Below are positions 22,719-34,022 of a DNA stretch of 64,000 bases, one piece after another. Numbering within the stretch: the stretch's first letter is position 1; every line of letters begins with the position of its first letter. The DNA lies in contig OZ245015.1 of assembly GCA_965223705.1 (NCBI GenBank), positions 224,001-288,000 of the forward strand, in the 5' to 3' direction. The stretch is from Myxococcota bacterium. GTDB lineage: Bacteria > Myxococcota_A > UBA9160 > UBA6930. The position numbers and the translations under genes were made by a program. The notes under the pieces were generated by a model, which saw nothing but the letters and a program-made list of their open reading frames with translations, did not search any database and was not told the DNA's origin.

Positions 22719-24005
22719 GTGACTTCGAGAAAAGAGGCCCTCGCCTACCACGCCGATGGCCGCCCTGGGAAACTGTCGGTCGAACCGACGAAGCCCACGG
22801 CGACGCAAAACGACCTTGCGCTGGCCTACAGCCCAGGCGTCGCTGAACCCTGCCGGGAAATCGCGAAGCACCCGGAGGACGCCTATCGCTATACGGCGAA
22901 AGGCAACCTCGTCGCGGTCATTTCGAATGGGACCGCGGTACTCGGGCTCGGAAACATCGGAGCGCTGGCCGGGAAGCCCGTAATGGAAGGCAAGGGCGTC
23001 TTGTTCAAAGCGTTCGCCGACATTGATGTGTTCGACATCGAGATCGACAGCGAAGACCCGGAAGAGGTGATCCGGACGGTGCAGCTCATCGCGCCGACGT
23101 TCGGGGGCATCAACCTCGAGGACATCCGAGCCCCGGATTGCTTTGAGATCGAGCGGCGCCTGAAGGAGAGCGTCGACATCCCGGTGTTCCACGACGATCA
23201 GCACGGAACCGCCATCATTTGCGCGGCAGCGTTGTTGAACGCGCTGGAGCTCACCGGTCGGCGGCCCGAAGAGGCGCGCGTCGTTTTCTCCGGTGCGGGC
23301 GCAGCGTCGCTCTCGTGCGCGAGATTGTTCTGCGACTTCGGCGTACGCCGCGAGAACGTCTTGATGACGGACCGCCGGGGTGTGATTCACCGCGAGCGCT
23401 TGTCCGAGCTGAATGAGTACAAGCGAGAGTTCGCCGCGGACACGGAGCGGCGCTCTTTGGCCGACGCTCTCGTCGACGCCGACGTCTTCGTCGGGCTGTC
23501 GCAGGCCGGACTCGTCACCCGAGACATGGTGCGCAGCATGGCGCCCCGCCCCATCATCTTCGCGATGGCGAACCCCGACCCCGAGATTTCCCCCGACGAC
23601 GTCGCATCTGTGCGCGACGACGCGATCATGGCGACCGGGAGGTCGGACTATCCGAATCAAGTCAACAACGTCTTGGGGTTCCCGTTTATCTTTCGCGGTG
23701 CACTCGACGTGCACGCGACCGGAATCAACGAAGAGATGAAGCGGGCGGCGACGACGGCTCTGGCCGAACTCGCGAGAAGCGACGAAGCGATACCCGAGGT
23801 CGTCAAGCGGGCGTACCCGAACCGCTCACTTCGCTTCGGCCCGGACTACATCATTCCCACTCCGTTTGATCCGCGCGCGCTCCTCCGGGTGGCGCCCGCA
23901 GTCGCACAAGCCGCCATGGATACCGGCGTGGCGCGCCGAACCATCGAGCTCTCCGCATATCGAGAGAAGCTCGAACAAACCGTCGAAGCTTTGGCGTCGC
24001 GGTAA
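22719..24005 (+). CDS. Malic enzyme (MaeB-type catalytic domain, no PTA domain)
   Basis: [55 protein letters not shown]. Confidence 0.92.
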
Positions 24006-24022
24006 CCAGAAGAGAGAGCAAC

Positions 24023-25573
24023 ATGTCGATCGAGGAGCGAATCAAGCGGCTCGAAGAGCTCTCGGCCACGGCCGAGCAGGGCGGAGGCGCCGCCCGAATC
24101 GAGCGTCAACACGAGAGCGGGAGAATGACCGCGCGCGAGCGAATCGAGCTGTTGCTCGATCCTGGTAGTTTTTCCGAGATCGACAAGTTCGTCGTCCATC
24201 GCTGCAACGACTTCGGAATGGAGAAGAACCGGATACCCGGCGACGGCGTGGTCACCGGCTCCGGCCGGATCGACGGGCGCACGGTGTTCTTGTTCGCACA
24301 GGATTTTACCGTGTTCGGTGGAAGCCTCTCGGCGACGTTTGCCGAAAAGATCTGCAAGGTCATGGATCTCGCCGCGAAGGTCGGAGCACCATTTATCGGC
24401 CTCAACGACGGAGCGGGGGCGCGCATCCAAGAAGGTGTGGCTTCCCTCGCGGGCTACGGCTCGGTCTTCTACCGGAACGTGATGTCTTCGGCGGTGGTCC
24501 CGCAGATTTCGGCAATCATGGGACCGTGCGCCGGCGGCGCCGTCTATTCGCCCGCAATGACCGACTTCATCATCATGGTGAAGAACACGAGCAATATGTT
24601 CATCACCGGTCCCGACGTCGTGAAGACCGTGACCCACGAAGAGGTGAGCGCCGAAGACCTCGGGGGTGCGAACACCCACGCCACCAAGAGCGGCGTGTGC
24701 GCGTTCGCCGCCGGTTCCGAGCAGGAAGCGATCGGGACGATCCGCAAACTCCTCTCGTACTTGCCGGCCAACAACCTCGAGGATCCGCCGTTTCTCGAGA
24801 CCGACGACGATCCGCACCGAATGGAATCCGCGCTCCACGCCTTGGTGCCGGACAATCCGAACAAGCCCTACGACATGCGCGAGCTGATCAAGATGGTGGT
24901 CGATGACGGTGACTTCCTCGAAGTCCACGCGCAGTGGGCCCGGAACATCGTGGTCGGCTTTGCACGCTTTGGCGGCCGAGCCGTGGGTGTTGTCGCAAAC
25001 CAGCCAGCGCATCTCGCGGGTTGTCTCGACATCGACAGCTCGAGGAAGGGCGCCCGATTCGTGCGCTTCTGCGATGCGTTCAATATCCCGCTAGTCACGT
25101 TCGTGGACGTTCCGGGCTTTCTCCCCGGAACGGATCAAGAGTACGACGGCATCATTACGCACGGATCGAAACTCCTCTACGCCTTCTGCGAAGCGACGGT
25201 TCCGCGTATCTCGGTTGCCACGCGAAAAGCGTACGGCGGTGCGTACGTCGTCATGAACAGCCGGAGCGTCGGTGCCGATATGTATTTCGCGTACCCGACG
25301 TCGGAGTTCGCCGTGATGGGTCCGGACGGTGCGGTGAACATCGTCTTCCGCAAGGAGCTGGCCGACGCCGACGACGCGGTCGCGAGGAAGGAAGAGCTCG
25401 TCGAGGACTATCGCGAGAAGTTCGCGAACCCGTTCAAAGCGGCGGAGCTCGGGTTGGTCGACGAAGTCATCCGGCCCGAAGAGACGCGCCCGAAAATCAT
25501 TCAAGCCCTCAACTTGCTCGCAAACAAACGGGCGGAAAATCCGCCCAAGAAACACGGCAACGTCCCGCTCTAA
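24023..25573 (+). CDS. pccB: Acyl-CoA (propionyl-CoA type) carboxylase carboxyltransferase subunit
   Basis: [45 protein letters not shown]. Confidence 0.9.
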
Positions 25574-25583
25574 GAGGCTACTC

Positions 25584-27110
25584 ATGTTTTCCAAGGTGCT
25601 CATTGCCAACCGCGGGGAAATCGCGGTCCGTGTGATTCGGGCTTGCCGCGAGCTCGACGTAAAAACCGTCGCGGTGTACTCGGACGTCGATCGCGACGCA
25701 CTCCACGTCCGGCTGGCCGACGAGGCGTACCACTGCGGGGCGCCCCCGGCCGCGGAGTCCTACCTACGTGTCGATCGCATTCTCGAGATCGCACGCGAGT
25801 CGGGCGCCGAAGCGATTCACCCGGGATACGGGTTCCTCTCGGAGAACGGCGACTTTGCCGAGCGCTGCGCCGAAGAGGGGATCGTCTTCATCGGCCCGGC
25901 CGGGTCCGTGATGCGTCAGATGGGCGACAAGGTAACCGCCCGACAAACGATGGAGAAAGCGAACGTTCCCATCGTCCCGGGAACGACCGAACGGCTCACC
26001 GACGAAGAGGCGAAGCAGTGGATGGAGAAGATCGGCTTGCCGGTGATGGTGAAGGCAAGCGCCGGCGGGGGCGGCAAGGGGATGCGTCTCGTCCGCGAGG
26101 CGAAGGAAATTGATCAAGCGCTCCAGCGCGCTCGGAGCGAGGCGAAGGCCTCGTTCGGCGACGACTCGCTCTATATCGAGAAGTTTGTCGAGGAACCGCG
26201 GCACGTCGAGATTCAGATTCTCGCGGATACCCACGGCAACGTGGTCCACTTGTTCGAGCGGGAGTGCTCCATTCAGCGGCGCCATCAGAAAGTGATCGAG
26301 GAAGCTCCGGCCAACCGCATGACCGAGGACCTCCGCGCCCGGATGGGCGAGGCGGCAGTGGCCGCCGCCAAGGCGGTCGGCTACCAGGGAGCGGGCACCT
26401 GCGAGTTCCTCGTCGACGCGAAAGGCGATTTCTACTTCCTCGAAATGAACACGCGTGTACAGGTGGAGCACGCGATCACCGAGGCGATCACCGGTATCGA
26501 CATCGTGAAGACGATGATCGCGACGGCATCGGGGGAGCCCTTGCCGTTTCGGCAGGAAGATCTCGCGATTCGCGGCCACGCGTTCGAAGCGCGGATCTAC
26601 GCGGAGGACCCGGACAAGAATTTCGTGCCGTCGCCGGGGGAGATCACGGTCTATCGCCCTCCCGACGGGATCGGGGTCCGCGTCGACGGGGGCGTGTACC
26701 AGGGGGCGACGGTGACTGTGAACTACGATCCCATGGTCGCGAAGCTCGTCGTCTGGGGCGCGACGCGACAGGAATCGATCGATCGGTTGCGACGCGCGTT
26801 GCAGGAGTTCGTGGTCAAGGGCATCAAGACTTCGATTCCGTTCCACTTGAAAGTGTTGCGGCACGAGAAGTTCATCGAGGGGCACTACGACACCGGCTTT
26901 ATCGACGACCACATGGCCGGCGGCAAAGGTGCACCCGAAGAGCCCGGCGAAGAGCGGCAGACCGCCCAGGCGCTGGCGGCGATTGCCGCGTTCCGCCGGG
27001 ACAAAGAGCGCGCCGAGCGCGTGTCCTCTTCCGGGGCGAATGCGTCGGCTGGCACTGCAGCTCCGTGGAAAGAATTTGGGCGCCGTCGCCAGATGGGGAG
27101 GCTGTCGTGA
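25584..27110 (+). CDS. Biotin carboxylase subunit
   Basis: ANRGEIA, HPGYGFLSEN, GGGGKGMR, RECSIQRRHQK, EMNTRVQVEH, YDPM. Confidence 0.95.
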   Translation: MFSKVLIANRGEIAVRVIRACRELDVKTVAVYSDVDRDALHVRLADEAYHCGAPPAAESYLRVDRILEIARESGAEAIHPGYGFLSENGDFAERCAEEGIVFIGPAGSVMRQMGDKVTARQTMEKANVPIVPGTTERLTDEEAKQWMEKIGLPVMVKASAGGGGKGMRLVREAKEIDQALQRARSEAKASFGDDSLYIEKFVEEPRHVEIQILADTHGNVVHLFERECSIQRRHQKVIEEAPANRMTEDLRARMGEAAVAAAKAVGYQGAGTCEFLVDAKGDFYFLEMNTRVQVEHAITEAITGIDIVKTMIATASGEPLPFRQEDLAIRGHAFEARIYAEDPDKNFVPSPGEITVYRPPDGIGVRVDGGVYQGATVTVNYDPMVAKLVVWGATRQESIDRLRRALQEFVVKGIKTSIPFHLKVLRHEKFIEGHYDTGFIDDHMAGGKGAPEEPGEERQTAQALAAIAAFRRDKERAERVSSSGANASAGTAAPWKEFGRRRQMGRLS

Positions 27111-27625
27111 TTTACGAAGTTCGCGAAGGGAAAGAGAGCGCCCGGGTCGAGCTCCGCGAGACCGGCGAGAACAGCTACGAGGTCCTCATCGACGGGAAAG
27201 CGGTCCACGTCGACGTCACGAAGAGCGCGCGGACGATCTATTCCGTCATCGAGGACGGCCGGCAGTACGAGGCGATGGTCGACGAACGCAAAGGCGACCG
27301 GTTGGACGTCACCGTGGGCGGAAGGATGTTCCACTTCGACGTCGTCGACGAACGAACGCGCATGCTGGCGGAAGCCGGTGGTGGCGCCCTCAGCGGCCCG
27401 CAGACGATCGCCGCAGACATGCCGGGGAAGATCGTCAAGATCGATGCGCAGGCCGGGCAGGCGGTCACCGAGGGTGAGGTCATTCTGATTATCGAGGCGA
27501 TGAAGATGGAGAATCCCATCGCATCGCCGATCGACGGCGTGGTGACAGCGATCGATGTGAGCGAAGGGGACGCCGTCGAGGGGGGCGCGACGCTGTTTAC
27601 CGTTGAGCCGGCGGCAGAGTCTTAG
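27107..27625 (+). CDS. Biotin carboxyl carrier protein
   Basis: EAMKM biotinylation motif, MPGKIV; GTGA overlap with biotin carboxylase. Confidence 0.92.
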   Translation: MIYEVREGKESARVELRETGENSYEVLIDGKAVHVDVTKSARTIYSVIEDGRQYEAMVDERKGDRLDVTVGGRMFHFDVVDERTRMLAEAGGGALSGPQTIAADMPGKIVKIDAQAGQAVTEGEVILIIEAMKMENPIASPIDGVVTAIDVSEGDAVEGGATLFTVEPAAES

Positions 27626-28349
27626 CGTCGACGCCGCGCTTGGCGAAGAGCCCTCCCGCCACAGCTCCGATCAGGTAGAGCACGAATAGCGGGCCGGCGA
27701 GCAAGACCTGGCTGATGATATCCGGCGGCGTGAGCACGGCTCCGAGCACGAAAGCGACGAGCAGGCCGTACTTGCTTCCCGTGATCAGCCGCCGCGTGGT
27801 CACCAGTCCGGTCGCTGCCGCAAAGAACACGAGAACCGGCAGCTCGAAGCCGATGCCGAATGCGACGAACAAGCGCGTGGTGAGCGCGAACACTTCGCGC
27901 ATCGTCCAGGCCGACGCGACGAAGTCCGTCGCAAAGCCGGAGAAGAACTCGAAGACGAGCGGGAAGACCAAGCCGTAGCCGAAACTCGCGCCGCCGGCGA
28001 ACAGGACCGTCGAAGCGAGGACGAAGGGCACGGCGAAACGTTTCTCATTGGCGTAGAGACCCGGGGCGACGAAGGCCCAGACCTGCCAGAAGAACACCGG
28101 CGTCGATAGGACAAACCCCGCCAAGAGTGCGCACTTCAGATACGTGAAGAAGATTTCCGTCGGTGCGATCGCCTGCAGGGGTGCATCCGGTCCGAGGGCC
28201 GCGAGCGCGGGGGCGAGCAGCGCGCCGAAGATCTCCTCGCGCAGCTTCCAGCACAGGACCGACGCGGCGCCCCAGGCGAGCAAGATCCAGATGATGCGAC
28301 GGCGGAGCTCCGCCAGGTGCTCCGTGAGCGGGAGCTCGGCGTCATCCAC
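27597..28349 (-). CDS. tatC: Twin-arginine translocase TatC
   Basis: [28 protein letters not shown]. Confidence 0.95.
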
Positions 28350-28614
28350 CGCTAGGCGGATCCTCTTCGCCGGACGGTGTCGATGTGGCAGCGGACTGCG
28401 GTGCGTTCTTCGCCGGGGCGCCCGGAGTCTCGGGCGGTTCCGGCTTGTCTTCCGCGGCTTCGATGAGGCTCGAGCGCAAGTCGGAGGACGCCCGGCGGAA
28501 TTCCGCCATTCCGCGGCCGAGAGAACGCGCCATTTCGGGAAGTTTGCTCGGGCCGAAGATCAGGAGCGCCACCACGAGGATGACGAGAAGCTCAGGTAGG
28601 CCGATTCCAAACAC
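28342..28614 (-). CDS. Twin-arginine translocase TatA/TatB family
   Basis: [27 protein letters not shown]. Confidence 0.92.
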
Positions 28615-28644
28615 AAGGACCCCGCGGTTACGTCGAATCTAGCC

Positions 28645-28785
28645 TGTGCGGTGGCCCGCCGCTCCGCGTCGCAACGCGATCGCGCTCCCCCCATTTTCAG
28701 CGCGATCGGCCGCTCTGCGGAACGACGGGCCCACTCTCCAACCTCTCGGGGGCGGGCTCGGCTGCCCGCCGACCTTCATCATCGT
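28645..28785 (-). ncRNA. Putative sigma54-dependent structured RNA (sRNA or tat leader)
   Basis: 7-bp hairpin (28751-28770) and ~84-nt long hairpin (28651-28734) with G-U pairs that form only on the minus strand; starts at predicted +1 of the sigma54-like promoter; 3' end uncertain. Confidence 0.5.
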
Positions 28786-28795
28786 GCACATCTTC

Positions 28796-28903
28796 TTCAA
28801 GAGTCGTGCCACGCCTCGGGAATTCCCTAACCGCTTGATTTTCCTCTCGTTGGACCCACTGGGGCGGCGGCACCCCGACCGCTCTTGCGTTCCGATCGGA
28901 ACG
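28796..28903 (-). promoter_or_regulatory. Sigma54-like promoter with IHF site and palindromic enhancer candidate
   Basis: Minus strand TGGCACGACTCTTGAA (28811-28796; -12 is GA not GC); IHF consensus AATCAAGCGGTTA (28840-28828); perfect palindrome CGTTCCGATCGGAACG (28888-28903). Confidence 0.65.
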
Positions 28904-29003
28904 ACACACGCAACTCCGCCGCCAACCACCTCGCGGAGCGCGATTTTCGAACCGTACAAAGCGGAACATCAAGCGCGCGCGATCGCACACCGATAGACCT
29001 TCC

Positions 29004-29840
29004 GTGTGGGTTCCTCGACACGAAAAACTGAGAATCGCCGGGCTCGTCATCGCCCTTTTCCTGGCGCAGTCCGCGGGCGGTGAGATTTACCGTTGGGTGG
29101 ACGCTCAGGGTCGTGTGCATTTCACCCAAAATCTCTCCCAGGTGCCGCCGGATCAGCGCAAGAGCGCGTCACCCGCGGCACAGAGCGATCGCATTCAGGT
29201 CTATGACGCCCCCGCGACCACCCCCCGCCGGGTGAACCGTCACAAACAGGCGCATCGGGTTCCCTTCGTCAGTCGGGCCCAGGTCATGCTCGTTCAGGCG
29301 AAGATCGACGACGCGATCACGTTGACGTCGCTCGTCGATTCCGGTGCGAGCGTCGTCGTGGTCCCGACGCGCGTCGCGCAGGCTCTCGGCTACGACTTGG
29401 GACCCGGCGTGCGTCGTATTCCGATGCAGACCGCGAACGGCACCGTCATGCAGCCCGTCATCACCCTTCGCTCCGTCGAGCTCGGAAGCGCACGCGTCGA
29501 GAACGTCACGGCGGTCGTGAGCGACAGCATGAGTCAGGGCCTGATCGGGGGCTCGTTCATCAACAACTTCGTCTATCAAGTCGACGCCGCCGACCAAGTC
29601 ATCGTGCTCCGACCCAACGACCGCGTCCGCAGCGGTGCCAGCCGCGCGCAATGGCAGCGGAGTTTCCGCGACGTGCGCGGGGCACTGATGCGGGTGGATC
29701 GCTACCTCGACGAGAACGAACTCACCGACGCATCGCGCGTCCGAGAACTCGAGTCTCGTCGCAGCGCGCTTCGCGAAGAATTGGCGCAGCTCGAAAAAGC
29801 TGCGAACAACGCCGGAGTCCCCCAAGCATGGCGCGACTAG
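29004..29840 (+). CDS. Exported retropepsin-like (clan AA) aspartic protease with DUF4124-like N-terminus
   Basis: Signal peptide; EIYRWVDAQGRVHFT; VDSGAS; TANG; GLIGGSF. Confidence 0.85.
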   Translation: MWVPRHEKLRIAGLVIALFLAQSAGGEIYRWVDAQGRVHFTQNLSQVPPDQRKSASPAAQSDRIQVYDAPATTPRRVNRHKQAHRVPFVSRAQVMLVQAKIDDAITLTSLVDSGASVVVVPTRVAQALGYDLGPGVRRIPMQTANGTVMQPVITLRSVELGSARVENVTAVVSDSMSQGLIGGSFINNFVYQVDAADQVIVLRPNDRVRSGASRAQWQRSFRDVRGALMRVDRYLDENELTDASRVRELESRRSALREELAQLEKAANNAGVPQAWRD

Positions 29841-30346
29841 TAAGCCTGTGCATCGCGACCTTCGCGGTTCTCGGTATCAGTGGATCGGCCGAAGCCGAGA
29901 TCTACCGTTGCGTAGCGCGGGACGGAACCGTCACGTACACCAGTAGCGAGTCCGCTTGTCCCGGAGCCAAGCCCCACAAGCTGCGCGGACGAATCGAGCG
30001 CGTGAACAAAGCGCCGCCGCCGGCGCGCGCCGTACGGCGCCCACAACCCGCCCCCGAGGCGGGTCAGGCCGCGCAGTGGCGAGCCAAGAAGGCGGCCGCG
30101 AAACAACAGCTCGATGTGACGACCCAACGCAGCGAGCAGTTCCGACACTTCGTTACCTGGTGCAACCGCGGCGGGGACCTCTACCAGACCGACCGGTCCG
30201 GTTTGCGTCGGCAATACTCCTGCGAAGATGCGGATCGCGAGTGGGAGAACGCGAAGCGGCAACGCGACGCGGCGGCTCAATATCTCGCAGAGGGACTCGA
30301 AGAGGAATGCCGGCGGTCGGGCTGCCTGCCCGGTTGGATTCGCTGA
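29828..30346 (+). CDS. Exported DUF4124-like protein
   Basis: Signal peptide ending AEA; EIYRCVARDGTVTYT; C-terminus CRRSGCLPGWIR. Confidence 0.7.
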   Translation: MARLVSLCIATFAVLGISGSAEAEIYRCVARDGTVTYTSSESACPGAKPHKLRGRIERVNKAPPPARAVRRPQPAPEAGQAAQWRAKKAAAKQQLDVTTQRSEQFRHFVTWCNRGGDLYQTDRSGLRRQYSCEDADREWENAKRQRDAAAQYLAEGLEEECRRSGCLPGWIR

Positions 30347-30349
30347 GGC

Positions 30350-31723
30350 CTACGACGGAGGCGGCGACGAAATCCCGTAGCGATCCATTTTGCGCTTGAG
30401 TACGCGACGCGTAATTCCCAACGCTTCCGCGGCTCGGGTTTGATTCCAGTTCGCCCGCGTAAGAGCCTCACGGAGGATCTGCCGTTCGAAACTTGTCGTC
30501 GCTTGATCGAGTTTCAGGTTCCCTTCGACGACTTCGCCTTGGAGCGCGCGCACATCGCTTCTGCGTCGGAACGACTCCGGAAGATCCTCGACGCGAACAG
30601 CCTCGCCCGGTGCGAGTGCGACGCAACGCTCGACCACGTTCTGTAGTTCGCGAACGTTGCCAGGCCACGCGTGTCGCTCGAGCACCCGGAGGGCCTCGGC
30701 GTCGAAGCGCTTCGGGCCGCGCCCTTCGCGCGCCCTCGCCCGCTCGATGAACGCTTGCGCGAGCCGCGCGATATCTCCCTCGCGCTCGCGGAGCGGCGGA
30801 ACGTGGATCGGGATGACGTGGATGCGAAAAAAGAGGTCCTGACGGAAGCGCCCCGCCGCCACTTCGGCCTCGAGGTCGCGATGCGTGGCGGCCACCAGCC
30901 GCGCGGTTATTTCGATTTCTTGACCGCCCCCGACGCGTTCGATCACGCGCTCCTGTAGAGCCCGCAGAAGTTTGGCCTGAACACCCAAGCCGAGTTCAGC
31001 CACTTCATCGAGGAAAAGCGTGCCGGAGCCCGCGGCTTCAAACTTCCCGACGCGGCGTTCTACAGCGTCGGTGAAAGCGCCGCGTTCGTGCCCGAAGAGT
31101 TCGCTTTCGAGAAGTGCGTCCGGGATGGCCGCGCAGTTCACCGCGACGAAGGGCTCGTCGCGACGGAGGCCGGTTTCGTGAATGGCCCGCGCGACGAGCT
31201 CCTTGCCCGTTCCACTCTCGCCGGTAATGAGTACGTTGGCCGAGTTCAGGGCGACCCGTTCGAGGGTATCGCGCAGCGTGCGCATCGCGGGACTGTCGCC
31301 GAGGAGCGCAGCCTCGGCGCCTTTTTGTGGTGGCAGGTCGGGCTCCTTCTCCGGCGCGTCCGGCGCCGCGCCGGCGACGAGCTTCGCAACGCGCTCGCGC
31401 AACTCCGCAGCTTCGAAGGGCTTCGTGATGTAGTCGCTCGCGCCGAGCCGCATCGCTTCGACGGCGCTTTCGACGGTCCGCGTCGCGGTCACGACGACAA
31501 CCGGGGGTACGCCGCCGCTCTCGCGCCAAGCGGCGAGGAAATCGAGACCGCTCTCGCCCGGCATGATGAGATCCAAGAGGATGAGGTCCGGCGCGTGTTC
31601 GGCCAACGCGGCGAGCCCCTCGCGTACCGACGCCGCCGTGTGAACTTCGTGTGCACCGCGAAGGATCATGCGAAGGGATTCACGAACCCCCCGCTCGTCA
31701 TCAATGACCAGCACCCGCCCCAT
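30350..31723 (-). CDS. NtrC-family sigma54-dependent response regulator (REC-AAA+-Fis HTH)
   Basis: VIDD, LLD, KPF; GESGTGKE, ESELFGHERGAFTDA, LFLDE, WPGNVREL; NQTRAAEALGI. Confidence 0.95.
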   Translation of the reverse strand: MGRVLVIDDERGVRESLRMILRGAHEVHTAASVREGLAALAEHAPDLILLDLIMPGESGLDFLAAWRESGGVPPVVVVTATRTVESAVEAMRLGASDYITKPFEAAELRERVAKLVAGAAPDAPEKEPDLPPQKGAEAALLGDSPAMRTLRDTLERVALNSANVLITGESGTGKELVARAIHETGLRRDEPFVAVNCAAIPDALLESELFGHERGAFTDAVERRVGKFEAAGSGTLFLDEVAELGLGVQAKLLRALQERVIERVGGGQEIEITARLVAATHRDLEAEVAAGRFRQDLFFRIHVIPIHVPPLREREGDIARLAQAFIERARAREGRGPKRFDAEALRVLERHAWPGNVRELQNVVERCVALAPGEAVRVEDLPESFRRRSDVRALQGEVVEGNLKLDQATTSFERQILREALTRANWNQTRAAEALGITRRVLKRKMDRYGISSPPPS

Positions 31724-31755
31724 CAGAGCGGAAGGTAACAGCTCTCACGCCGGTT

Positions 31756-33501
31756 TCAGGAGGCCGCGGGCAGGTCGATCGCGAGAAGTCCCAGCGTGGT
31801 CTCCGTATCGAGCGTCAGGGTGCCGCCAGCAGAAGCAAATACGGCGTCGGCAAGCGTCAACGCGAGCGAAGCGCGCGCGGGTGCCAAGTCGCCGGCGCCA
31901 AGTCGGTCGGAGATTCCCGGGAATCGGAGCAGTAGCCGAACCGATGGGGCTTCGTCACCGCGGACTACGCTTCGCCGCACGGAGAGATAGAGATCGCGGC
32001 CGTCCTCGACCCAGTCGATGACTTGCGAAAGCACAGCGCGGAGTGCAAACGCCACGTGAGAAGCGGGCGCCTGCACCGGCGTCGCGCCTCGTTCGAGCTC
32101 TTCGAGGACGACGATCTTGCGCGCGTCGACCGTGTCGCGAAATTCGCGCACCGCGGCTTCGGCGAGGGTCGCCAGATCGCAAACGATCGCATCCTTCGGC
32201 GTCGGTGCGTCGCGCAACGCGTTGTACCGCTCGAGCAGCTCCATGGTTCGCGTCATGCGCGCCACGTCCTCGCTGGCGAGACTGCCGAAGTTGACCCGAA
32301 ACTCTTCGTCTTGATGCTGCTCGGGAAACAGCGTCGTGAAGGTCTGGAGGGTTGAAAGGGGATTGCGTAGCTCGTGCGCCAGAGCGTGGGAGATCGCATC
32401 GATGTCGACGCCCTGGGGAGCGGGTGCGGTCGAATCTTCGCCGCCGTCGCGCGCTTCCCCTGGTTCCGGCGCGTCGCGGGAGACACCGTCGCCTGCGGGT
32501 GCCGCCCGTTCGAGTAGGCGCTCGAGGTCACGGTAGTTGCGTCGCAAGCGCCGCTGGGAGAGCGCCGTGACCCATCTCGCAACGGTCGCCTCGTCGGGTG
32601 CGCCGCGTTCCTCGGCGAACGCCCGAACGAACCGTTCGACGGCACCGGGTCGCTCCCGAAGCGGCGGAATCCGCACTTGATGCCTGAAGCGGTGGCGAAG
32701 CTCCGACGTGACGTCGCGGCCGGAGTCGCCGCACAGCGCAAACACGCGGACGCGGGGCAAGTTCGATGGCAAGTAACCGAGCTCGAGTCGGCTCGCGAGG
32801 GCCGATTGCGTCGTTTCCGGAAGCGCGTCGGTATGGAGCAAGATCACGGCGAGCACAGCATCACCGGGCTCGGCAGGCACGCGTCGCAAGCGAGCCCACA
32901 GCTCTTCGATATCTCGGAGCTCCCGCGCGTCGATTTCGCAGCAGGGTCCGGGCGCCTGCTCCGTGACTGCGTGCACGTAGCGCGCGAGGAGCCGCTTCCC
33001 GGTACCGCTCTCACCTTCGATGAGGACTTCCGCCGCCGCTTCCGCCGGATTGACCAACGGCAGGAACAGGTTCGGGTCGAGATCTGAAAACAGCTCGCGA
33101 AACCGATCCGAGAGCGCGCTTCGCTCGCGCAGGTCCGAGAGCGAGGGACCGTTCGCGGCGAGCTGCCCCGTTTCGAGCGCGGAGCGCAGCTCGGCGCTCG
33201 CGGCCGACAAGTCGAGAAACTCGTGCGGGAGGCAATCGAATAGACGCGCCGCGAATCCGCTCTCGTGAGGTTCCCCGGCCAGCCACCAACGGGCGCGGGG
33301 GAAACGGTTGCAGATGTCATTCGCAAACTGCAGTTCCTCGGAACAGTCGCCTTCGAGGCCAAGGACGACGGCCCGTGGCTCCGGGGCCTCCCGGAACGCT
33401 TCTGTTCTGGGGACGCCGACGTTCACCGCGGCCCGGCGTGGCACGAGTTCGGCGAGCCAGGCGCGCTCTTCGTCGCGGCGATGAACGACCCAAAAAACCA
33501 T
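31756..33501 (-). CDS. Atypical fusion: degenerate sigma54-activator AAA+ domain, HisKA H-box, degenerate HATPase
   Basis: EGESGTGKRLLAR, IPPLRER, NYRDLERLLERA; ALAHELRNPL; no GAFTGA, Walker B DE, or N/G boxes. Confidence 0.75.
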   Translation of the reverse strand: MVFWVVHRRDEERAWLAELVPRRAAVNVGVPRTEAFREAPEPRAVVLGLEGDCSEELQFANDICNRFPRARWWLAGEPHESGFAARLFDCLPHEFLDLSAASAELRSALETGQLAANGPSLSDLRERSALSDRFRELFSDLDPNLFLPLVNPAEAAAEVLIEGESGTGKRLLARYVHAVTEQAPGPCCEIDARELRDIEELWARLRRVPAEPGDAVLAVILLHTDALPETTQSALASRLELGYLPSNLPRVRVFALCGDSGRDVTSELRHRFRHQVRIPPLRERPGAVERFVRAFAEERGAPDEATVARWVTALSQRRLRRNYRDLERLLERAAPAGDGVSRDAPEPGEARDGGEDSTAPAPQGVDIDAISHALAHELRNPLSTLQTFTTLFPEQHQDEEFRVNFGSLASEDVARMTRTMELLERYNALRDAPTPKDAIVCDLATLAEAAVREFRDTVDARKIVVLEELERGATPVQAPASHVAFALRAVLSQVIDWVEDGRDLYLSVRRSVVRGDEAPSVRLLLRFPGISDRLGAGDLAPARASLALTLADAVFASAGGTLTLDTETTLGLLAIDLPAAS

Positions 33502-33554
33502 CAGCGTCCGCGGCCGCCGTCGGAACAATCCGCTCGAGCGGTACCCTTCGCGCT

Positions 33555-34022
33555 GTGGATATCCAGGTGCGTCCCCCCCGACCCCGAGAGTTCGACCGGC
33601 TGGCCGAGCTGTGGCTCGCGTTGCTCGAGCATCACGCCGCCGCGGGTCCGCGGTTCGAGCCCGGGCGCGATGCGGTGCTCCGCGTTCGCGAAGACCTCGA
33701 GGTCTGGGACCGGGACCCGCACACGCGCATCGCCGTCGCCGACGCCGAGCAGTTGATGGGTTTTTGCATCGCTCGAATTCTGCGCCGATCCGAGCTTTTT
33801 CGCGAGACCTCTCGGGGTGAAATCGATTCGATTTTTGTCCAAGTGCCGTATCGTGGCCGCGGTATTGCTAAAAAGTTGGTGGAAGACGCCTTCGCCTGGC
33901 TCCGCGCCACCGGCGTCCAGCGCGTATCGCTCACGGTCGATCGCACGAACCCGGGCGCGCGGGCCTTCTGGGAGCGCTGCGGCTTCGAGCCGGCGATGGA
34001 CGTGCTCGACCGGCGGCTGTAG
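33555..34022 (+). CDS. GNAT-family N-acetyltransferase
   Basis: IFVQVPYRGRGIAKKL, NPGARAFWERCGF. Confidence 0.88.
   Translation: MDIQVRPPRPREFDRLAELWLALLEHHAAAGPRFEPGRDAVLRVREDLEVWDRDPHTRIAVADAEQLMGFCIARILRRSELFRETSRGEIDSIFVQVPYRGRGIAKKLVEDAFAWLRATGVQRVSLTVDRTNPGARAFWERCGFEPAMDVLDRRL

Follow-up and report, generated by a model that had tools for sequence, protein, structure and literature searches.

The DNA stretch of 64,000 nucleotides analysed here (the window, to which coordinates without a contig name refer) contains sigma54-type promoter elements and a predicted RNA structure directly upstream of the Tat export genes tatA (28342..28614, minus strand, PF02416) and tatC (27597..28349, minus strand, PF00902), which raises the question of what this promoter drives. 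A preliminary description proposed either a novel sRNA or a structured leader of the tat genes. Each promoter element that it named was found on the minus strand: a palindrome, CGTTCCGATCGGAACG, at 28888..28903 (itself strand-neutral), an exact match to the IHF consensus at 28828..28840, and a -24/-12 box, TGGCACGACTCTTGAA, at 28796..28811 (TGGCAC-N5-TTGA, 13.3 bits), the spacing to which places the predicted start at 28785 on this strand. A distal, likewise strand-neutral enhancer, TGTTCCGCTTTGTACG (28953..28968, 13.0 bits with the relatives' matrix), had been overlooked. The single elements recur: C1 contains 281 perfect palindromes of at least 16 bp, so that the palindrome alone is not rare, and TGGCAC-N5-TTG and the exact IHF consensus occur 43 and 14 times, respectively, as a chance background in the genome; despite this, their combination is unique in the genome.

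The conservation of the promoter was assessed in 137 tat loci fetched from same-order relatives, among the matches listed (a TatC match was obtained in 184 of the 193 genomes); tatA was matched in 135 loci, including the window and the metagenome contig L077. The data showed that two CGTTCC-N4-GGAACG enhancers, about 65-70 bp apart in relatives, and a -24/-12 box are located behind the same NtrC-type activator gene in 79 of 118 informative loci, while 23 loci had neither activator nor promoter, 14 had the activator alone and 2 the promoter alone. With relaxed criteria, the enhancer pair was seen in all 11 of the 14 activator-alone loci that were inspected, and a CGGCAC-type box in 8 of them. 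For the matrices, 84 promoters and 101 enhancer sites were taken from relatives, leaving out the window locus and L077, and the consensus of the 101 sites was exactly the window's proximal palindrome. With these matrices the window promoter scored 51.6 bits, compared to 11.8 bits for the runner-up among 147 sigma54-like sites in the genome, and therefore it is likely the only target of the activator there. The -12 element is GA rather than GC in 9 of 18 protease-adjacent loci and in 10 of 86 loci overall, and by this distribution GA is a lineage trait rather than decay. The exact IHF consensus near the promoter was not kept in 26 relatives; L077 has an IHF site with two mismatches at the same offset as in the window. 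The genome contains rpoN and two genes of the HU/IHF family. Thus, the reading as an enhancer-IHF-sigma54 promoter is backed by conservation and by co-occurrence with the adjoining activator gene; judged by its conservation the sigma54 promoter is real, and we infer that the activator binds it.

The usual gene order in relatives is kinase-like gene, NtrC-type activator, enhancers, -24/-12 box, receiver-HD-GYP, PilZ, tatA and tatC. In the window the activator gene (30350..31723, minus strand) encodes receiver, AAA+ and Fis HTH domains (Pfam), with no equivalog cut-off reached, and the kinase-like gene (31756..33528, minus strand) lies upstream of it, in synteny with relatives. The former is likely the cognate activator of the promoter, and the kinase-like protein likely its sensor partner. 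The kinase-like protein is unusual in that a weak HisKA domain follows a degenerate sigma54-AAA segment, and no HATPase match was obtained with Pfam. In the window's family two opposite-strand DUF4124 genes lie between the activator and the enhancers. On the plus strand, at 28969-28994 and abutting the distal enhancer, a TCAAG-N16-CCGAT sequence, seen in 23 of 25 loci, lies before the gene for the DUF4124-aspartyl protease; it resembles a sigma28-type promoter. In the genera g2 and g9 (L054, L059, L060, L064, L065, L068) the activator is lost or truncated, and the promoter, HD-GYP and PilZ are lost. Elsewhere in the genome a second tatC copy is located at G000 C1:1237726-1238442.

While the sigma54 promoter of relatives drives the RR-HD-GYP and PilZ genes (Pfam), both are absent at the window locus and were not found elsewhere in the 95%-complete genome. 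The tatA gene appears to have a promoter of its own, as a -10 box of the sigma70 type, [CG]TAnnnT, precedes it in 128 of 133 loci, compared to 7 of 675 control windows, and is represented in the window by TAGATT at 28636..28641 on the minus strand. Between the two promoters, the minus strand would give a transcript in which GAUGAUG (28777..28783), containing the ATG at the ancestral start-codon offset, is followed by a 7-bp hairpin (28751..28770; arms 28770-28764 and 28757-28751), the 11-nt sequence GAGAGGUUGGA (28737..28747) and a 30-bp rod (28653..28731), the apical loop of which, GAAAAUGGGGGG (28687..28698), is predicted to be fully unpaired. The hairpin arms, the loop and the rod (described as 28734-28651) form as the preliminary description had stated, the rod with 30 pairs, 4 of them G-U, and a perfect inner stem of 10 bp. 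The rod folds with -61.2 kcal/mol (z -6.8) on the minus and -45.2 kcal/mol (z -4.8) on the plus strand, and among 3096 inverted-repeat seeds on the chromosome none gives a more stable 84-nt fold. A search by blastn found no second copy of the element in its own genome; therefore the identity of the rod as a REP or MITE family member was rejected.

To what extent this structure is maintained was seen from loci which, like the window, have no HD-GYP and PilZ genes. L077, the protease of which is 58% identical to that of the window, has the same layout of promoter, hairpin, GAGAGGTTGGA, rod with TGGGGGGAG, -10 box and tatA. Its stems differ in sequence from those of the window, its hairpin 1 has 9-10 bp, and the two rods could not be aligned in register with MAFFT; the 11-nt GAGAGGUUGGA is identical, while GAUGAUG is not kept. 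Five further gene-less loci belong to two other families, and in all seven loci (three families) the promoter and a long rod with a loop of five or six Gs are kept. In PilZ-bearing loci one to three tandem G-loop hairpins are often located between pilZ and tatA; the density of G-loop hairpins was 0.184/kb, compared to 0.023 in antisense, 0.031-0.053 in upstream controls and 0.024 genome-wide. A strand-neutral count in 109 spacers gave 74 G-U versus 20 A-C mismatches, and 41 versus 6 in G-loop stems. Together, L077, the five additional gene-less loci and the bias of G-U over A-C argue that the minus strand specifies a structured non-coding RNA, so that this part of the earlier proposal stands, while the choice it had left between sRNA and tat leader persists as two live mechanisms. 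A scan with Rfam 15 of window positions 24000-34000, 10 loci of relatives, the partner RNA described below and 7 mraZ or sister-order loci gave nothing at the gathering threshold.

Several observations concern the distribution of the element among closer sequences. Among contigs from four sequencing runs, X5 is unchanged across 28636-28786, and X6 and X7, which span parts of the rod, differ there in 10 and 16 letters. A protein search returned one protease 76% identical, and the protease was not found in the same-genus genomes G001 and G002. In G001, a reduced genome, an inverted near-copy (12-mer) of the 11-mer is located at a contig edge beside a C-run upstream of tatA (L013:14-40). The promoter-plus-11-mer pattern occurred in 1 of 151 genomes of the order, and a GTDB scan for it was set aside, as its at least 119 scattered matches look like chance. 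The idea that a rod is hidden at the pilZ start of intact operons was rejected as well, because a G-run was present there in 28 of 77 loci and a comparable rod in none. In L061, L048, L067 and L069 the PilZ N-termini are QL(A/S)(L/F)(D/G)F-like, presumably resembling a sliding-clamp-binding motif, and several of these loci have a small G-loop hairpin at the pilZ start.

The loss of both operon genes could suggest that the transcribed region is a relic of the HD-GYP/PilZ operon, in which the rod serves as an insulator or U-less terminator for tatA and the G-run is a leftover pilZ Shine-Dalgarno sequence. This would fit the ATG retained at the ancestral start-codon offset (starts are at T+28 to T+30 in 16 of 26 relatives), the G-runs near the pilZ start and the absence of a common sequence from the stems. 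However, the enhancer is a perfect consensus that is kept in L077 at 58% protease identity, G-loop rods are also found downstream of intact pilZ genes, the pilZ G-run of native loci does not lie within a long rod, and matches of 11-15 nt extend to the non-G part of the seed described below, and hence we consider a relic very unlikely. The same ATG, which is near-leaderless, could instead start a 47-aa peptide at 28782, or the functional RNA could be the C-rich plus strand, which also folds (z -4.8 in the window, -6.3 in L077), with a TAGCCT hexamer preceding the rod. The preliminary description had itself named conservation of this short overlapping ORF as a refutation, but no matching ORF exists in L077 or the other gene-less loci, and the overlapping frames have no Pfam match. 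The hexamer is likewise not kept in L077, and the G-U bias in G-loop stems (41 to 6) favors the minus strand, which makes a peptide or a plus-strand RNA extremely unlikely.

To find RNAs able to pair with the conserved 11-mer GAGAGGUUGGA, the genome was searched for its complement, which occurs in five places, one of them intergenic. The latter is located beside miaB on the minus strand (C1:2067863-2067675; L311:4175-4400 = G000 C1:2067675-2067899), pointing away from the miaB-like gene and towards a VWA-CoxE gene, and it has the features of an sRNA, here called the partner: a near-consensus sigma70 promoter, a terminator, and a stem that leaves some 20 C-rich bases unpaired and exposed. Of 30 relatives, 29 have both a TTGACA-N17/18-CATAAT-type promoter and the terminator, and for the remaining one the upstream sequence is missing. 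The C-rich core is predicted to be unpaired. The partner 18-mer TCCAACCTCTCACCCCCC, with at most one mismatch, was found in 51 of 58 genomes of the class, nearly always as a single copy, compared to 4 of the 243 genomes from elsewhere in the phylum, where the matches had one mismatch and no structure. The genomes of g2 retain the partner despite their loss of promoter, HD-GYP and PilZ. A peptide encoded by this RNA was rejected, because the reading frames differ between genomes. On a contig from a viral collection (L453:250-360), 27 nt identical to the partner core are placed inside a different stem, and this stretch is possibly a distant homologue from host DNA. In the article texts searched, neither the partner 17-mer nor its complement was found, nor any description of the element or the partner RNA. 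The partner is a previously undescribed, class-wide candidate small RNA.

The complementarity between the two RNAs involves three sites: GAGAGGUUGGA is the complement of the partner's UCCAACCUCUC, GAUGAUG that of its CAUCAUC, and AUGGGGGG, located within the apical loop, that of its CCCCCCAU. The predicted costs of opening GAGAGGUUGGA, AUGGGGGG and GAUGAUG in the window RNA are 3.1, 0.0 and 1.3 kcal/mol, respectively, which means that, as modelled, this RNA offers accessible complementarity mimicking the partner's targets, as sponges do. Separate matches of 11 and 8 nt to the partner occur nowhere on the chromosome but in the window RNA; with looser cut-offs, chosen afterwards like this one, 2 places passed at 9+8 and six at 11+7. 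Among the 70 pre-tatA spacers of at least 95 nt (39 shorter ones were left out), 27 matched the partner over at least 8 nt, compared to 2 in antisense, 0 in coding and 4 in shuffled controls, and such a match was absent from the other 43 and from the short spacers; these counts overstate independence because the genomes are kin. The match extends to 15 nt in L077, where the site is predicted to be mostly paired (opening cost 10.3 kcal/mol), and to 14 nt in L265 from another family, and the base following the G-run was T in 52 of 76 cases compared to 257 of 1102. Since the search that led to the partner started from the 11-mer, support independent of it lies in how extremely the partner is conserved, in the longer match of L077 and in the other lineages. 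The seed is nearly invariant, and no clear covariation was detected, as its variants were not clearly mirrored in targets, the variant seed of G040 was unmatched by its own mraZ site, and swapping seeds on mraZ sites gave no consistent gain for the own seed. We regard it as highly probable that the element binds the partner RNA.

The G-rich loops could alternatively be decoys for a protein, in the manner of CsrA- or GlmY-like systems, rather than bind RNA. A csrA gene is present in the genome (G000 C1:3022326-3022481), the loop motif is repeated, and GlmY, as described in the available part of its literature, is an sRNA dependent on sigma54 and IHF (PMC3045617). On the other hand, GGA is missing from most loops, and the complementarity spans the whole invariant core of one RNA and is common to the dcw sites described below, which makes a protein decoy highly unlikely.

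The loop sequence AUGGGGGG resembles the ribosome-binding sites of ftsA and ftsZ. Seed matches in start regions genome-wide were not enriched (18 versus 7-23 for shuffled seeds), and the list of these regions contained ftsA and ftsZ side by side (Pfam). Across the class, the partner core matched 16 of 27 ftsA and 17 of 30 ftsZ start regions over at least 9 and up to 13 nt, compared to 0 of 136 for tatC and 0 of 88 for the activator, the ftsZ stretch searched being longer than the control stretches. Because GGGGGGUGA also fits the 16S tail, only matches of at least 10 nt exceed a strong Shine-Dalgarno sequence, and these were found in 13 of 27 ftsA and 13 of 30 ftsZ start regions. The sequence GGGGGGTGA, conserved across the class, lies just before the ftsA and ftsZ start codons (L391:1065-1073 and 2461-2469). 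A third match was located in the mraZ-rsmH spacer (L439, G000 C1:3844968-3845195), which contains a split seed site and a G6-loop rod; there a 15-nt match to the partner begins in the mraZ stop codon, and matches of at least 10 nt were present in 14 of 30 genomes compared to 0 of 30 in antisense and coding controls. The order of elements in this spacer, a G-run, a hairpin, GAGAGG(U)UGG and a long rod with a G6 loop, is the same as in the window RNA, and its position suits cis control. The GAGAG of the L439 spacer is able to pair with a downstream CUCUC, which suggests an sRNA-operated switch.

Rods before tatA are not confined to this order. In 9 of 10 genomes of a sister order, a stand-alone 80-nt rod with a G6 loop precedes the tatA -10 box, located behind a sigma70-like promoter, with no sigma54 box within 1.5 kb. 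Seven aligned rods showed two-sided changes at 15 of 30 pairs, and the covariance model R1 built from them found two held-out members. This model gave the window rod a score that was not significant (12.8 bits, E 3.3), left the other gene-less rods likewise unmatched and had no genome-wide match; therefore a shared layout of window and sister-order rods is claimed, and homology is not. Three sister-order genomes have no mraZ-rsmH spacer, and their pre-tatA rod offers only the G6 loop; in G221 the start region of ftsZ has a match to the sister-order loop.

The layout shared with the mraZ-rsmH spacer, which precedes rsmH-ftsL-ftsI, could mean that the element acts in cis. In such a case the sigma54 transcript would be an extra tatA-tatC mRNA, and the sRNA binding to its leader would trigger termination or cleavage, so that Tat export would rise only with the activator on and the sRNA low. 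This possibility is consistent with the location of the element always directly before tatA, including the sister order, with the reported export of division amidases by Tat in enterobacteria, and with the lack of a terminator: as the preliminary description had noticed, no U-tract follows the rod beyond 28653, and the end expected of an intrinsic terminator is not seen. It is harder to reconcile with the tatA -10 box in 128 of 133 loci, with the distance of the sites from the tatA start, with their repetition two or three times in some lineages, sometimes followed by U-rich tracts, and with the activator-less lineages, which lost the promoter yet retained tat. We consider a cis target rather unlikely, but it is a serious reading and the main rival of the one preferred here.

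We favor instead, with slightly better than even confidence, a model in which the 28785-28651 transcript is a sigma54-induced, target-mimicking sponge of the partner sRNA, which would relieve its predicted repression of ftsA, ftsZ and mraZ-dcw. The sponge is preferred because tatA has its own promoter, because the sites are placed on very stable stems, and because they are multiplied in some lineages and survive the loss of both operon genes. The activator would bind the two conserved palindromic enhancers, and with bending by IHF the sigma54 promoter would open. The transcript is predicted to fold into hairpin 1, an open linker and the 30-bp rod, a fold with comparative support, in which the rod would be both scaffold and 3′-protective stem. 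As there is no U-tract, polymerase likely continues into tatA-tatC, and decay from the 3′ end could halt at the rod, so that a stable RNA about 135 nt long would remain; with no terminator after the rod, a discrete RNA of this kind is a prediction. In the predicted pairing, GAUGAUG, the hairpin and GAGAGGUUGGA would copy the split mraZ-rsmH spacer site, and the G6 loop the ftsA and ftsZ ribosome-binding sites, to both of which the complementarity corresponds. Sequestration of the partner would then lift the predicted repression of the ftsA, ftsZ and mraZ-dcw messages. In most relatives HD-GYP and PilZ are on the same transcript, and the activator would couple c-di-GMP signalling to this release of division, while the window lineage lost both genes and kept the RNA, presumably for this role. 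Sponge and cis roles may also both hold, by analogy with SroC and its parent mRNA as far as the available part of that report describes them (PMC4474525). More tentatively, and with somewhat less than an even chance, the data could reflect a class-wide, Hfq-independent checkpoint in which one constitutive C-rich sRNA represses mraZ-dcw, ftsA and ftsZ and is countered by a sponge that a two-component/sigma54 circuit expresses together with c-di-GMP proteins and Tat, the function of the loop being kept or rebuilt on unrelated stems each time the protein genes were lost.

From comparison alone, the analysis yields two RNA families with no Rfam match, predicted targets in the mraZ-rsmH spacer, ftsA and ftsZ, and an activator with its exact predicted site. 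If the sponge reading is true, an organism in which no Hfq match was found would have a sponge dedicated to a cell-division sRNA, and a regulatory RNA would several times have outlived the genes with which it shared an operon. A further prediction is that the class, whose members appear to be uncultured, has a regulated phase without division.

The comparison with described systems is drawn from the available portions of the cited articles. Pxr of Myxococcus (RF01812) is a sigma54 sRNA with an enhancer just downstream of genes for a kinase and an NtrC-type activator, as in the window (PMC5684412, PMC5568312, PMC11928866); its covariance model had no match at the window locus, and the first loop of Pxr is C-rich according to the primers printed in one of these articles (PMC5568312), while the loop of the window RNA is G-rich. 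GlmY is similarly an sRNA transcribed from a sigma54 promoter that involves IHF and more than one activator site (PMC3045617), but it is a protein decoy for RapZ, and the window RNA has no Rfam match. SroC, the sponge of GcvB, and the chbBC trap of ChiX resemble the proposed mechanism, as in both the sponge site is located in an inducible operon mRNA and a stable fragment is left (PMC4474525). They depend on Hfq and RNase E and serve metabolic regulons (PMC4474525), whereas no match to the Hfq model PF17209 was found in the 95%-complete genome, in which the Hfq dependence of these sponges is thus not reproduced, and in the window system the coding genes were lost repeatedly while the RNA part was kept. 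The analogues of the partner are StsR/UpsM of Rhodobacter (PMC8266604), DinR and DicF (PMC10907235), which target the beginning of the dcw mRNA or the ribosome-binding site of ftsZ. These are stress-induced, while the partner has a near-consensus sigma70 promoter, and the available text names no dedicated sponge for them (PMC8266604, PMC10907235); unlike StsR, DinR and DicF, the partner matches the mraZ spacer, ftsA and ftsZ with one core. The proposed sponge would work like CrfA, the sponge of the SisA-D (alpha-R8) sRNAs of Caulobacter crescentus (PMC12559287). Although no sequence or Rfam relation of CrfA to the window RNA was found, in both systems an inducible RNA presents a purine-rich stem-loop to the pyrimidine-rich anti-Shine-Dalgarno sequence of a terminator-ended sRNA (PMC12559287). 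The window system differs in its sigma54 and two-component control, in having no Hfq match, in its single partner, the core of which spans about 25 nt, in its two kinds of mimic site and in its predicted cell-division targets.
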